A DNA stretch of 24,000 nucleotides from Saprospiraceae bacterium (lineage in GTDB: Bacteria > Bacteroidota > Bacteroidia > Chitinophagales > Saprospiraceae): NCBI GenBank assembly GCA_022841745.1, contig JALHQW010000069.1:8353-32352 (forward strand), read 5' to 3'. The notes below the pieces were generated by a model. It saw only the letters and a program-made list of their open reading frames with translations. It searched no databases and was not told the DNA's origin. Made by a program: the position numbers and the translations under genes. This document shows positions 1 to 22,720 of the stretch, one piece after another (position 1 is the first letter of the stretch; each line of letters opens with the position of its first letter).

Positions 1-1
1 C

Positions 2-124
2 CGCACCACCGAGCAGGAGGGACTGCTGCACATCACCCTCGATTATGTCGTGCGGAGCACGAATTCCCGTTTCAACATCGTATTCCCCTTCTACATCAAG
101 GAGGGCACAAACATAGATTTATGA
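2..124 (+). CDS. 3' end of a GPW/gp25-like baseplate wedge gene (Afp9/Pvc9 position); the 5' part lies outside the window
   Basis: The frame is open from the window edge: RTTEQEGLLHITLDYVVRSTNSRFNIVFPFYIKEGTNIDL*. Its TGA (122-124) overlaps the ATG of the next gene (ATGA). The strand-like C-terminus and the position directly upstream of a baseplate-J-like gene fit gp25-like proteins. Only 40 aa are visible. Confidence 0.45.
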   Translation, partial: RTTEQEGLLHITLDYVVRSTNSRFNIVFPFYIKEGTNIDL

Positions 125-3100
125 AAAATTGTCCTGTAAATCCATTGCGCCGCCACGGCTCCCGGCAGGGCGAAAGGCTGTTGCGGGCGCTGGTGCCCAG
201 CAACGTCCGGCTGGACGACCGCTCCATGCAGGACCTCATCCGCTATGTCTATGACCTCTCGAAGGGCGTCAACTACTTCAACCTGCAAAACACCGAGGAC
301 GGCGACTGGCACTGCTTTTTCTCAAATGAGCCGACCGTGCTGCTGGCACTGTTGGCCACGCTAGACCTGGAGGGCATGGAGCGGGACTATCTGCTGCTCG
401 AACAGGACTACCACAAGCGCCACGATGCCGCCGAGGACGACCCCTCCCTGACTGACACGAGCGGGCAGGTGCTCCCGCAACTGATTGGAAAAATCTACCA
501 AGCCGCCAAGCGGGTGCAGCGGACCTGCAACCAACTACCGCCCGACCACCTCCTGAAAAAGCAAATCGGCGGGCTGATTGCGAAGCTGCGGCCTGCGCTC
601 GAAAGGCTGATTGGCTACCACAAGGCCGGCAGCGACGACGATATTTCGGCGGAATATGCCCCGTTCATTCTTGGCAGCGACAAGGCGACCCCCTGCACCA
701 AGTTCTGGAGCCCAGCTGCTGTCTTTGAAACCACCTGCGAGGGCGAAAAAAAGCTGCAGGGCAATGCCCACGAGGACCTGACGTTGGACTATTTCTACAA
801 CTGCATCTTGCCCGACCCGACGTTTGACCTTGAGATACTGCACGACCTGTTCCGGGAGTTTTTCAACGCACTTTCGGCCATCGTGGCCGCTGCGCAAAGG
901 GCTTTCCAAAACTCACTTCACCAACGTGACGACCACCAGCCGCATATCACGCTGTTCTTCGCCTTCCTCAACCTGTTCCGCTACCTGCAGGAGCAGATGA
1001 ACGGCCTGACCAAGCGCCACTTGGATTTTTACTACGAAACCATCCTCGGCCTCCAACGGCGGCAGGAACTGCCCGACCGGGTACACCTTGTCTTCGAGCT
1101 GGCGCAAAACCTCGTGCGGCACGAGCTGAAGGACGGCACCCCCTTCGACGGCGGCAAGGACGAGGACGGCCGCCAGCGGGCCTATGAGCTAGAGGAGGCC
1201 TTCGCACTCAACCACGCCAAGGTGGAGCAACTTAAAACGCTGGCTTTTTTGCCGAGACCCCTTGATGTCGGCCCAACTGGATGCGTTGGTACTTTGTTGT
1301 CCACTGCGGTTTCACTTGACCCTAATCCGCTCCGCAATATTTATGCTGCTCCGGTGGCCAATTCCAAGGGTGGCAACGGAAAACCCGACCCTGCCGTCCA
1401 ATGGAGTCCCCTTGGTGATAACCTGCAGCCGGATGGGGAGATTGGATTCGCCATTGCTTCGCCGATGTTTTATTTGGGGGAAGGGGTGCGGGTGATATTG
1501 GTTTCCTTGCCAATAACGCAAGGAGCAATTGGGGGCGATCTGAACGAGTTTTTTGAGATTCAGTTGAGTGCGGAGAAGGAATGGGTGCCTATCCAAAAGC
1601 TGGTTTTTGATGCCACAGTTTTTAATCCCGATGATTTTATCCTAAAAATCAAGGCTAATGAAATCTATGAAAAAACCCCACCACTAAATACCACAGGTTT
1701 TATAAAAATCCCGACTACATCAGGTTTTTATATTTCCCAAAACCTGCAAGAAATTGCCGTCGTCCTGCGGGAGGACGTGCCCGCCATCACCAACTTCGTT
1801 GGGGAGCCGAAGGAGGGGGAAATCCCGTTGAACGCCAAATGGCCAGTCCTGAAATTAAAGCTGAAACAAGACGACCGATATGAGTTTTTCAATGCTGACT
1901 CAAATATTTTGGAAGGACTCCGTCAAATGGAAGTGTGCAGCATGACGCTGAAGGTGGCCGTTTTTGGTGTTGAAAAACTCGTGCTCCAAAGCGGGCTTGC
2001 GGTGTTTGAGCCAAAGCGGAAGTTTCAGCCATGGGGGCCTGCTCCAGAAATCGGGGATGCTTTTTTGATTGGAAGCTGGGAGGTATTCCAAAAGAAACTG
2101 ACTAAATTATCGGTCAATTTAGCATGGCTGGGGCAACCCGATTATAATGATGTATTGTACCATGGCAGGCTTACCAAAGACTTGTTCATAGCTAATTGTT
2201 CTTTTTTGGACAACCGCAGGTGGAGCGTTCCTGTTTTGCCGAGAAAAATATACGACCAAATAGACTTCTCAACTGACACAACGGAGCTAATCCCGCTCAA
2301 TCCGAGGGAACCATTCCTTGAAAAATTCAGCCAATTCGATACAAATACAGAGCGGGGCTTTATGCAGATGGAACTGCTACAGGATTACTTGCACAAGGTT
2401 TATCCAGCCTTGTATTCGATTGCAGCCATCAATTATGCGGATACCGTACAAAATCCTCCAATTGGGGTAAATAACTCAGTATCCGATGTTAACTCATCTT
2501 CAAGCGGAACATCGGCACCTCCGACGAACCCCAATGTCCTTTTTGCGGTAAATAATAACCCTCCGATAGACCTGCAAGGCTTCCCAAAAGAACCCCACAC
2601 CCCCACCCTCAAATCCGTCTCCCTCGACTATATCTCCGAGGAAACCATCAATGTGGGCGGTGCCAACAGCGACATCGAGCAGTTTTTCCACCTCCACCCC
2701 TTCATGGGGAACGAGGCCGTAGCTATCCAAAAGCCCGGTCAGGCATGCCCCCCGCTGCTGCCATTGTTCTGTATGCCCGAAGGCTCTCCCGTGGAGGATT
2801 GCTGCCCCGACAAAACGCAACCAATCAGGCCCCCGGTCTTCATTACCAAATGCCCATTGGCCCACGGCAACCTCTTCATCGGCCTGAAAAAACTGGAGCC
2901 GGGGCAGAGCCTCTCCCTGCTGTTCCGGGTGGAGGAGGCCAGCGGCAACCCCGCCGCCGAGGCACCGGGGGTGGCCTGGTCGTACCTTCGGGGCAATGAG
3001 TGGGTGCGCATCCCCGTCCAGTTGCTCCTCTCAGACACGACCTTCGGCCTGACGAAAACGGGCATCGTGAAGCTGCAAATCCCCACCGACCTTAGCAATG

Positions 3101-21238: not shown

Positions 21239-21265
21239 ACAGCCTCGAAAGTTAATTAAATAACC

Positions 21266-22720
21266 ATGAAAAAAGACTCCTCAATCTCCACCTTTTTCAA
21301 TTCCTTCCTGCACCCCACGCCCAAGCAGGCAACCAATGACATGTCGCAAAACGGCCACCCGCCCATTGCGCCAGCAAGCCAGATTCCACGAGTGTCCTCC
21401 CCCGATTCCTCCAACCTCCTCCTCTCGCTCGACTACCTCCGACAGGTCGTCCGTGGGCGGCTGCGACATCACTTCGGAAAGGACGCCGACTTCGAGCTGC
21501 CGCAGTTTCAGGTGAAAACGGATGGGACGCCTTTCTCGAATTTCTTGATTTCTGCCAACCCTTCTGTAGAGGAACTCGTCACGCTGCTGTTAGCACTGGC
21601 TCCTTATGTTGAACCGAATTTTTTTGGCCAGCTCGTCGCCGAGGTGATGCCAAATGGGGGCGACTTTCCAGATTTCGGCGGGGTGAAGGGCACCAACCAT
21701 CGGGGTACACTTCCGACCGGTGAAACGGCGCTGTTCGTTTTGGCGGGCAATGACACGCAACGCAGGTTCGCCCTGCAAAGCCTTTTTCACAGCGGCCATT
21801 ATTTTGCAAAAGAAAGAATCCTCTCCTTGGAACAAATGAAAGAAGGAGAACCCCCCATGAGTGGTCGGCTGCTGCTCGACCCTGAAATTGTTGAATTATT
21901 CACCACAGGCTTTGTCTCCCGTCCGAAGTTGAGCGTACAGTTCCCTGCCCAGTACCTCGAAACAGGCTTGGAATGGGATGAACTCGTACTCCCGGAGCTT
22001 ACCAAAAAACAACTGCGGGAATTGGAGACTTGGCTTGCCCACCACCAAACCCTGATGGTAGATTGGGGCATGGAAAGACGCCTTAAACCGGGCTATCGGG
22101 CCTTGTTTTATGGGCCACCAGGCACAGGCAAGACGCTCGCCGCCTCGCTTTTGGGAAAGTACACGGGCAGGGACGTTTTCAGGGTTGACCTCTCAACCGT
22201 CGTTTCCAAGTTTATCGGCGAGACGGAGAAGAACATGGCCAACCTCTTCGACAAGGCAGAAAACAAGGATTGGATTCTGTTCTTCGACGAAGCGGATTCA
22301 TTGTTTGGCAAGCGCACCAATGTGCGGGATGCCCACGACAAGTACGCCAACCAGGAGGTTTCTTACCTTCTGCAAAGGGTGGAAGGCTATCGTGGCATGG
22401 TTATCCTTGCCACCAATTTCAAGGCCAATATTGATGAGGCATTCATCCGGCGCTTCCAATCAGTCGTCAATTTCCCCATGCCAAGAGCTTTGGAGCGGGA
22501 GCAGCTCTGGCTGCGTGGATTCCCGCAAGCTGTCACCCTTGCCTCCGACATTGACCTGAGACAGATTGCCGAAAAGTTCGAACTTTCAGGTTCCAATATT
22601 ATGAACGTGGTTCAATATTGTTGCCTTCAAGCCCTATCGTCGGGCACAAGTGAAATATCCGCACAGGTCTTGCGGCAGGGAATTGAGCGGGAGTTCAACA
22701 AGGAGGGAAAAATCATATAA
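21266..22720 (+). CDS. eCIS-type AAA+ ATPase (Afp15/Pvc15-like)
   Basis: Walker A is GPPGTGKT (22112-22135) and Walker B is ILFFDEAD (22274-22297). VSKFIGETEKNMANLF and ILATNFKANIDEAFIRRF are also present. The ~280-aa N-terminal domain carries LPTGETALFVLAG...FPAQYLETGLEWDELVLPELTKKQLRELETWLAHH, a block I associate with the ATPase found in eCIS loci. Confidence 0.85.
   Translation: MKKDSSISTFFNSFLHPTPKQATNDMSQNGHPPIAPASQIPRVSSPDSSNLLLSLDYLRQVVRGRLRHHFGKDADFELPQFQVKTDGTPFSNFLISANPSVEELVTLLLALAPYVEPNFFGQLVAEVMPNGGDFPDFGGVKGTNHRGTLPTGETALFVLAGNDTQRRFALQSLFHSGHYFAKERILSLEQMKEGEPPMSGRLLLDPEIVELFTTGFVSRPKLSVQFPAQYLETGLEWDELVLPELTKKQLRELETWLAHHQTLMVDWGMERRLKPGYRALFYGPPGTGKTLAASLLGKYTGRDVFRVDLSTVVSKFIGETEKNMANLFDKAENKDWILFFDEADSLFGKRTNVRDAHDKYANQEVSYLLQRVEGYRGMVILATNFKANIDEAFIRRFQSVVNFPMPRALEREQLWLRGFPQAVTLASDIDLRQIAEKFELSGSNIMNVVQYCCLQALSSGTSEISAQVLRQGIEREFNKEGKII

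Follow-up and report, generated by a model that had tools for sequence, protein, structure and literature searches.

A probable AlgoCIS/Anabaena-type contractile injection system with a mosaic cargo array in a Saprospiraceae bacterium

Overall organization of the locus

The DNA analysed in the current study is a stretch of 24,000 nucleotides from a Saprospiraceae bacterium (contig JALHQW010000069.1), referred to below as the window. Positions 1 to 22720 of the window very probably form the distal half of one operon for a contractile injection system (CIS) of the AlgoCIS/Anabaena type. This region holds 12 co-directional genes on the plus strand, which span positions 2 to 22720 (Table 1): the end of a gp25-like gene, three further structural genes and the tape measure gene are followed by an island of about 10 kb with cargo genes and by a terminal AAA+ ATPase gene. 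Every feature of membership in the extracellular CIS (eCIS) that can be checked within the region was found there. The gene identities, the synteny with related loci, the leader shared by cargo proteins and the mosaicism of the cargo cassettes are direct observations.

According to an initial annotation, the region is the distal half of a locus of the Afp/PVC/AlgoCIS kind in which cargo genes separate the tape measure from the ATPase, and this was borne out. The co-directional, tightly packed arrangement that it described was also found, including an ATGA overlap between the gp25 stop and the Cis11 start at 121–124 and a gap of 1 nt at 7356. A second ATGA overlap (19062–19065) joins the second DUF4157 gene to the gene that follows it. 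The structural genes and those that end the island are closely packed, and the longest spacers measure 232 nt (12682–12913), 79 nt (14996–15074) and 196 nt (17142–17337). For four genes the likely true start differs from that of the longest open reading frame (ORF); the revised starts were taken from gene calls on identical Logan contigs.

Table 1. Features in positions 1 to 22720 of the window. Where the likely ATG start differs from that of the longest ORF, the first position of the latter is given in brackets.
Feature	Positions	Strand	Length	Basis or remark
gp25-like baseplate gene (Cis9), 3' end	2–124	+		C-terminal part of the GPW_gp25 protein (137 aa) encoded by the identical Logan contig L001
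Cis11 baseplate wedge protein (gp6/J-like) with large N-terminal cage extension	121–4107	+	1328 aa	PDB sequence search
Heptad-repeat hairpin, long and imperfect	4105–4205	+		cis11–cis12 spacer; GATTTCG/GATTTCA heptads and their complement
Cis12 baseplate protein	4206–7355	+	1049 aa	PDB sequence search
Cis19/Alg19-like crown or short-fibre protein	7357–9711	+	784 aa	C-terminal CarboxypepD_reg beta-sandwich domains
Tape-measure protein (Cis14)	9786–11243 (9753)	+	485 aa	PF19268 CIS_TMP, E 2.1e-127, full-length match
Cargo 1: leader (N-terminal region and DUF4157) fused to an M35 aspzincin metalloprotease domain	11317–12681	+	454 aa	
Orphan leader fragment, codons for IQPKLTIGAPDDQ	12786–12824	+	39 nt	97% identical to 11422–11460; spacer before the KAP gene
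KAP-family P-loop NTPase	12914–14995	+	693 aa	PF07693, E 2.6e-27
Furin/kexin-like S8 serine protease with C-terminal lamin-tail domain, no signal peptide	15075–17141 (14979)	+	688 aa	
T8-GGGGTGAA...TTCACCCC-A8 hairpin	17217–17260	+		between the genes for the S8 protease and cargo 2 (196-nt spacer)
Cargo 2: leader and uncharacterised C-terminal domain	17338–19065 (17332)	+	575 aa	PF13699, E 1.6e-30
U332, leader-only putative cargo without DUF4157	19062–20060	+	332 aa	N-terminus similar to the cargo 2 leader
U384, leader-only; predicted disordered Pro-rich N-terminus, helical bundle and porin-like beta-barrel	20096–21238 (20084)	+	380 aa	
Cis15-type AAA+ ATPase (putative cargo loader), N-terminal domain of ~230 aa	21266–22720	+	484 aa	PF00004, E 1.4e-28

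Baseplate, tape measure and ATPase genes

The first gene of the window, annotated as a gp25-like tail end, was confirmed as such by the Logan contig. The product of the following gene matched solved Cis11 proteins in a PDB sequence search (All3317, E 2.8e-118; Alg11, 2.7e-105; Pvc11, 2e-26; Afp11, 5e-23), as well as a baseplate chain of a Salmonella CIS, and TIGR02243 matched it weakly. The next protein had been assigned by position to Afp12. It is Cis12, with matches to All3315 (E 2.4e-112), Alg12 (3.5e-107), SalCis12, Pvc12 and a detectable Afp12. Both proteins carry cage-forming extensions, and four matched stretches align with All3317/Alg11 and All3315/Alg12.

The 784-aa protein had been described as carrying distal beta-sandwich domains in the Afp13 position. 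The beta-sandwich domains were found (PF13620 at residues 627–685), and homology to Afp13 was rejected. Residues about 440–556 matched All3314 (E 2.5e-17) and also chain 9wt0_a, the PKD-domain protein of AlgoCIS (E 3.3e-15). Since All3314 is the Anabaena crown protein Cis19, for which there is no Afp homologue (PMC8894136), the protein is regarded as Cis19/Alg19-like and not as Afp13. Proteins in the same position of four related loci (L007, L008, L016 and L017) are 30–35% identical to it.

The earlier reading of the next product as tape-measure-like was borne out by a match of CIS_TMP over its full length. With the published ruler of 0.229 nm per residue (bioRxiv 10.64898/2026.05.27.728243), its 485 residues would correspond to a tube of about 110 nm.

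The last gene of the operon had been predicted to encode an AAA+ ATPase of the eCIS group with a long N-terminal domain. Its AAA module is p97/CDC48 D2-like, with Walker A at residue 283 and Walker B at residue 337. Over residues about 45–484, which include the N-terminal domain, it is 48–52% identical to the terminal ATPases of five related loci (L004, L009, L013, L016, L017), a comparison made with CIS-island ATPase sequences, as no solved CIS ATPase was among the structures compared.

Related loci and the upstream part of the operon

Logan contig L001 (SRR28154529) is identical to positions 1–11457 of the window and adds the full gp25 gene, a PAAR_motif gene and a 41-aa gene end, which matches the spike C-terminus of locus L008. 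The spike gene expected upstream was thus partly recovered. In L007 and L008, the two nearest relatives retrieved, the upstream order is cap (Pvc16_N), an unidentified gene, sheath, two tube genes, DUF5908, CIS_tube, spike, PAAR and gp25, with housekeeping genes directly before the cap gene. From gp25 onwards the order in both loci is Cis11, Cis12, a protein of ~730 aa and the tape measure. The presence of sheath, tube and cap genes upstream of the window is well supported by these relatives, and such genes would be expected there.

The nearest relatives of Cis11 were 33–37% identical and came from Ferruginibacter profundus, from metagenome-assembled genomes of Chitinophagaceae and other Bacteroidota, and from Haliscomenobacter. 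A cargo array between the tape measure and the terminal AAA ATPase was found in four related loci (L009/L010, L013, L016 and L017), and in a further one (L004) the cargo is placed after the ATPase instead. Because four related loci share this arrangement, the island of about 10 kb lies at the usual cargo position of this lineage and is not an odd insertion.

Other classes of contractile tail were considered and rejected, in agreement with that annotation. For a type VI secretion system (T6SS), no Tss membrane-complex genes and no TssB, TssC or ClpV were found in the window with Pfam and NCBIfam models, and the related loci carry Phage_sheath_1 and Pvc16_N. For a prophage or phage tail, capsid, terminase, portal and lysis genes were not found in the window, the genes downstream of the locus are housekeeping genes, and in L007 and L008 such genes lie directly before the cap gene.

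Cargo proteins and the mosaic structure of their genes

The predicted association with DUF4157 was confirmed by two proteins of the island that contain this domain (PF13699, eCIS_core), formerly named the PVC-metallopeptidase domain (cited in PMC8213781). Cargo 1 matched PF13699 (E 2.4e-29), PF14521 (E 1.2e-9) and the structure of AsaP1 (2x3a; E 4e-4). It contains HELGH at residue 223, and HELAH and GTEDHG at residues 405–418. The leaders of cargo 1 and cargo 2 are 70% identical as proteins and are encoded by DNA repeats with 86–95% identity, whereas the C-terminal domains are unrelated. The sequence FF...ATIQPKLTIGAPDDQYEKEAD and the HELGH motif are present in both leaders, as are acidic and Cys-rich stretches; the disorder of the leaders was judged from composition only. 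The leader FF...QxKL(T/S)(I/V)xxPxDxYExEAD also heads cargo proteins in five related loci (L007, L008, L009, L016 and L017).

For the C-terminal domain of cargo 2, no Pfam match was obtained, and 242 homologues were found. Most of those listed are fused to PF13699 and are spread over several phyla (Chitinophagaceae, Gemmatimonas, Gemmataceae, Enterovibrio, Grimontia, Sulfurirhabdus and Leptospirales); a stand-alone family of ~310 aa was also detected. In the AlphaFold2 (AF2) model, with a predicted local distance difference test (pLDDT) score of 95, the domain consists of a helical half followed by an 8-stranded lipocalin-like barrel. The helical half contains invariant D112, K113, E146 and D162 and a nearly invariant H116. 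A fold search against the PDB matched the barrel half only, to generic 8-stranded barrels of the lipocalin and GID4 type, and no PDB fold was found for the conserved helical half.

A DUF4157 protein with a cargo 2-type C-terminal domain (38% identity) is encoded by Enterovibrio calviensis at positions 10001–11683 of locus L015. This is an orphan cargo gene, with no CIS genes within 10 kb.

The two cargo genes are mosaic in base composition. The GC content at third codon positions (GC3) is 0.61–0.69 in the core genes and both leaders (0.69 in the leader of cargo 1). It is 0.30 and 0.26 in the C-terminal domains of cargo 1 and cargo 2 and 0.27 in the U332 gene. The break lies directly after the HExxH motif of DUF4157, and the low-GC3 stretches extend over 12031–12681 and 18061–20060. 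Part of the leader recurs, out of frame, as an orphan copy ahead of the KAP gene, where the reading frame is broken; this copy looks like the scar of a lost or displaced cargo gene. The GC3 break and this fragment point to recombination at the conserved leader, through which putative toxin cassettes would have been imported from lower-GC donors. Modular pairing of DUF4157 with diverse toxin domains has already been described (PMC8213781, PMC11297309).

In the related JGI locus L013, small genes come after the DUF4157 cargo genes, one after each (7448–7972, 9399–9734 and 11630–12154), and their products have a lipoprotein-type signal peptide. These products are putative immunity proteins, and no such genes were found in the window.

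Leader-only proteins U332 and U384

Two further proteins of the island carry the N-terminal part of the leader and no DUF4157. The N-terminus of U332 aligned to that of cargo 2 with a score of 56, which none of 2000 shuffled sequences reached (25.7 +/- 5.3), and its gene (GC 0.37) contains a 43-nt repeat with 81% identity to the leader DNA. No match to U332 was found in Pfam, NCBIfam, PADLOC and PHROG, nor in the plasmid and phage collections. These data tentatively suggest that U332 is a cargo protein without DUF4157.

Alternatively, U332 could serve the C-terminal domain of cargo 2 as an immunity or partner protein, acquired together with that domain, and not be a cargo itself. The overlap of its start with the stop of cargo 2 and the low GC common to its gene and the cargo 2 domain (0.33) would fit such a pair, as would L013, where the gene with a cargo 2-type domain likewise has a small gene next downstream. 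However, the downstream proteins in L013 are 174-aa lipoproteins unrelated to U332, which has no signal peptide, and the first ~50 residues of U332 match the cargo leader significantly. A partner role is for these reasons considered rather doubtful, and U332 is treated here as a tentative cargo.

The family of U384 is rare: a search of 1.84 billion representatives yielded 24 relatives. Six of the ten relatives scanned are full DUF4157 leader fusions with the U384-type domain at the C-terminus; others have a QxKL...EAD leader and no DUF4157, or begin with a short N-terminal FFxP sequence. The protein is modelled by AF2 (pLDDT 71) with a disordered N-terminus, a helical bundle and ~14 strands. 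The best PDB folds were OmpC, OccK, VDAC and NanC, with weak E-values near 2e-3, and the members of the family end in an aromatic residue. The U384 family can firmly be predicted to be cargo without DUF4157.

The S8 protease

The S8 protease matched PF00082 (E 1e-38), PF00932 (E 2e-8) and furin (1p8j; E 8e-19), and its Asp, His, Asn and Ser catalytic motifs are intact. The family is unusually conserved across phyla (55–74% identity) and includes lamin-tail and P-domain variants. Copies with 67–74% identity were found in L009/L010, L016 and L017, each at positions 10001–12064. These are the three closest homologues whose context was examined, and all of them lie between the tape measure and the ATPase in CIS cargo arrays. 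The S8 protease is the most conserved gene of these cargo arrays relative to the window (67–74%, against 50–52% for the ATPase and 27–38% for structural proteins, the latter compared in two of these S8-bearing loci). In Ferruginibacter, a different S8 lamin-tail protease (28% identity) occupies the same position. The S8 lamin-tail protease appears to be a conserved accessory gene of this CIS sub-lineage. The enrichment table of Geller et al. lists the lamin-tail domain 5 times in eCIS operons, without significant enrichment (odds ratio 2.7, q 0.34), and in the truncated files searched neither Peptidase_S8 nor KAP_NTPase was found. A link between the presence of S8 and the basic or Cys-rich QRKC motifs of cargo leaders was considered and rejected, as these motifs also occur in islands without S8.

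One extension of these findings is that, in a sub-lineage of Bacteroidota CIS, the S8 lamin-tail protease has been recruited as a conserved accessory factor, a cytoplasmic convertase that would mature or trim leader-bearing cargo ahead of loading or afterwards, and that the arrays would also deliver leader-only effectors lacking DUF4157, including a membrane-inserting porin-like barrel. Taken as a whole, this proposal is considered improbable.

The KAP NTPase

The KAP-family protein has Walker A at residue 232, DDLDR at residue 421 and two membrane helices inserted in the NTPase domain between Walker A and Walker B. No homologue was found in the seven related cargo regions compared. A metagenome scan gave no match, and the plasmid collection gave only relatives with 25% identity or less. 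The KAP gene looks like a lineage-specific insertion into the cargo array, and is possibly defence-related.

According to one alternative, the KAP NTPase, alone or together with the S8 protease, represents an anti-phage defence or selfish module that came to lie among the cargo genes and plays no part in injection. The KAP protein gave partial matches to QatA and to the PADLOC candidate PDC-S20, the GC content of its gene is intermediate (0.46, compared with about 0.55 in core genes), and its absence from the other cargo regions would be expected of such a module. Two of the longest spacers flank the gene, and the orphan leader fragment lies just upstream. Furthermore, the terminal ATPase is similar to IetA, which is partnered by the S8 protease IetS. 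Against this, the S8 protease occurs in three other islands at 67–74% identity without a KAP gene and so does not form a pair with it, no QatBCD genes are present, and the IetS models miss the S8 protein, which is matched by the generic subtilase model only (1.6e-9). The ATPase is also syntenic with CIS loader ATPases and 48–52% identical to them. In this general form the module is a real possibility, held to be somewhat less probable than an even chance, and for the KAP gene alone a defence or selfish role is quite plausible.

Three specific assignments within this alternative were rejected. A functional pair of KAP and S8 is contradicted by the recurrence of S8 without KAP. An IetAS system formed by the ATPase and the S8 protease was not accepted, since the IetA matches (E 2e-35) reflect generic AAA similarity and the S8 protein is recognised as a generic subtilase only; the two genes are ~4 kb apart, with three genes between them. 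For a Qat system, QatA scored 71 bits against a cut-off of 600, and homologues of QatBCD were absent from the window. A literature search for subtilisin or KAP NTPase together with CIS returned no relevant report.

Proposed mode of action

For the injection system as a whole, loading, particle formation, extracellular release and toxicity would be expected to proceed as follows. Cis11 and Cis12, with the gp25, PAAR and spike products encoded upstream, would form a baseplate with a cage. The Cis19-like protein may form the crown or short fibres, with the CarboxypepD_reg beta-sandwich tips as the likely target-binding end, and the 485-aa tape measure would fix the length of the tube. The genes between the tape measure and the ATPase would provide the payload. 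Two of the proteins would consist of a disordered N-terminal FF...IQPKLTIGAPDDQYEKEAD region, the DUF4157 HExxH domain and exchangeable low-GC C-terminal toxin cassettes, and two others would carry only the N-terminal part of that leader. By analogy with AlgoCIS, the terminal AAA+ ATPase may recognise the leader, unfold the cargo and thread it into the lumen of the tube, from which contraction of the sheath would expel it into a target cell.

Several observations weigh against the reading of the window as such a system. No match of Pfam Baseplate_J to Cis11 was obtained at E <= 0.01; the earlier designation of this protein as baseplate-J-like stands because of its solved Cis11 homologues and not because of that family. 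The Cis19 assignment depends on a match of ~110 residues together with synteny and should be considered provisional. For this organism, only the spike C-terminus, PAAR and gp25 were visible upstream, and the sheath, tube and cap genes were not seen. No close relatives of Cis11 were found in genome, metagenome and viral contig collections (24–29% identity at most), no immunity genes for the island were recognised among the proteins of the window, and the similarity of U384 to the leader is weak when taken by itself (p about 0.009 in a shuffle test). The S8 protease and the KAP NTPase have no cargo leader at the N-terminus, and for the S8 homologues of Dyadobacter and Chryseolinea, which are 60% identical, no CIS genes were found within 10 kb. 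The link of these two proteins to injection is therefore positional only. With regard to the extracellular mode, relatives of this clade include membrane-anchored systems, namely the thylakoid-anchored CIS (tCIS) of Anabaena and T6SS subtype iv.

The last point leads to the alternative that the same machine is not released, and is instead anchored to a membrane inside the cell, as in Anabaena or the T6SS subtype iv of Amoebophilus, firing upon lysis or contact. Cis11, Cis12 and the Cis19-like protein each score slightly better against their Anabaena homologues than against those of AlgoCIS, and a cage and crown occur in anchored as well as in free systems (PMC8894136, PMC8894135). However, no Cis13 gene is present between cis11 and cis12, where the spacer is 98 nt long, the transmembrane Cis13 domain has been reported only in filamentous cyanobacteria (PMC8894136), and the relatives of the locus belong to the Bacteroidota, as does AlgoCIS. 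An anchored machine is judged unlikely on sequence grounds, and release of the particle would be the tentative reading.

Comparison with known systems

The closest likeness in design is to AlgoCIS of Algoriphagus machipongonensis (PDB 7aeb, 7aef, 9wsz, 9wt0), which belongs to the Bacteroidota like the relatives of the window locus. In both, Cis11 and Cis12 have cage extensions (E 1e-105 to 1e-107), and an Alg19-like fibre protein (provisionally assigned in the window), a tape measure of the CIS_TMP type and an AAA+ loader gene are present. Both also have two DUF4157 cargos with a common disordered leader and different C-terminal domains, one of which is a metalloprotease. In AlgoCIS, the cargos Cgo1 and Cgo2, composed of an N-terminal region, DUF4157 and a variable C-terminal domain (a predicted metalloprotease in Cgo1), fill the lumen of the tube (PMC8894135), and loading requires the N-terminal region and the AAA+ protein Alg15, while DUF4157 is dispensable (bioRxiv 10.64898/2026.05.27.728243). 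The earlier suggestion that the cargo set is probably undescribed was accordingly upheld only in part: the DUF4157-leader design with a metalloprotease corresponds to that of Cgo1 and Cgo2 (PMC8894135), and the other C-terminal domains are uncharacterised.

Differences from AlgoCIS were also found. The structural proteins are distant (of all Cis11 relatives found, even the nearest are 33–37% identical), the Cis19-like protein has roughly half the length (784 compared with 1443 aa) and different tips, and the array of the window contains the KAP NTPase, the S8 lamin-tail protease and the two leader-only proteins in addition.

The best-scoring solved homologues, All3317, All3315 and All3314, belong to the thylakoid-anchored CIS of Anabaena sp. 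PCC 7120 (PDB 7b5h; PMC8894136), where putative DUF4157 effectors adjoin the cluster. Unlike that system, the window has no Cis13 gene and a different gene order, and its relatives are Bacteroidota and not cyanobacteria. In Anabaena, alr3311 and alr3312 are the effector genes and are listed separately from the structural genes all3313–all3327.

Afp of Serratia entomophila and PVC of Photorhabdus share the general gene logic (baseplate 9, 11 and 12, tape measure 14, ATPase 15), and Afp11/Pvc11 and Afp12/Pvc12 are detectable homologues of Cis11 and Cis12 (E 1e-16 to 1e-26). Compared with these systems, the window has no adenovirus-like fibre of the Afp13 type, Cis11 and Cis12 are much larger, and PAAR precedes gp25. 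The PVC cargos Pdp1 and Pnf have no DUF4157 leaders, whereas the cargos of the window do.

In polymorphic toxin loci, C-terminal toxin cassettes can be exchanged behind an N-terminal trafficking module that is conserved. The variable C-terminal domains of foreign base composition are a feature that they have in common with the island, which also contains an orphan leader fragment. In contrast to such loci, no cognate immunity genes were recognised beside the cassettes of the window.

Locus boundaries and intergenic elements

Only housekeeping genes were found beyond the ATPase gene on an identical Logan contig, and the locus therefore ends at this gene. The flanking genes on L005 encode a DUF5916 protein, an AP endonuclease and a PAPS reductase. 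In the window it is followed by a gene of the DUF5916 family on the minus strand (22889–24000), convergent with the ATPase gene, and a hairpin between the two (22719–22742) may serve as a shared terminator.

The hairpin in the cis11–cis12 spacer has a minimum free energy of -43.8 kcal/mol as RNA (z -5.7), and within the window its heptad repeat unit is confined to this spacer. An RNA element within the operon and a small repeat insertion are possible explanations. The hairpin upstream of cargo 2 (-23.3 kcal/mol, z -5.1) reads identically on both strands.

No family matches were obtained for the seven largest antisense ORFs or for a plus-strand ORF (22814–23584) antisense to the DUF5916 gene, and an Rfam scan of the window found no RNA family. 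Scans for sigma-70 promoters and for terminators gave results close to the shuffle expectation, the sigma-70 consensus being ill-suited to Bacteroidota, and the Bacteroidota -7 motif TAnnTTTG was absent from every spacer.

Significance

The locus is a divergent example of the known AlgoCIS-like design, and the logic of its cargo is already known. No report of the specific cargo C-terminal domains, of the recurrent S8 lamin-tail protease or of the KAP gene was found in the literature searched. Three leads arise from the cargo array, none of which alters the current view of how such systems work. The FF...QxKL leader is family-wide and also occurs without DUF4157, which bears on the minimal loading signal. 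The recurrence of a furin/kexin-like protease inside cargo arrays is a testable lead. The third consists of two uncharacterised cargo domains with usable structure models, one helical and lipocalin-like and the other porin-like. With a nearest Cis11 relative of 37% identity or less, the locus is a divergent addition to the AlgoCIS-like systems, a small group whose engineering for protein delivery is under way.

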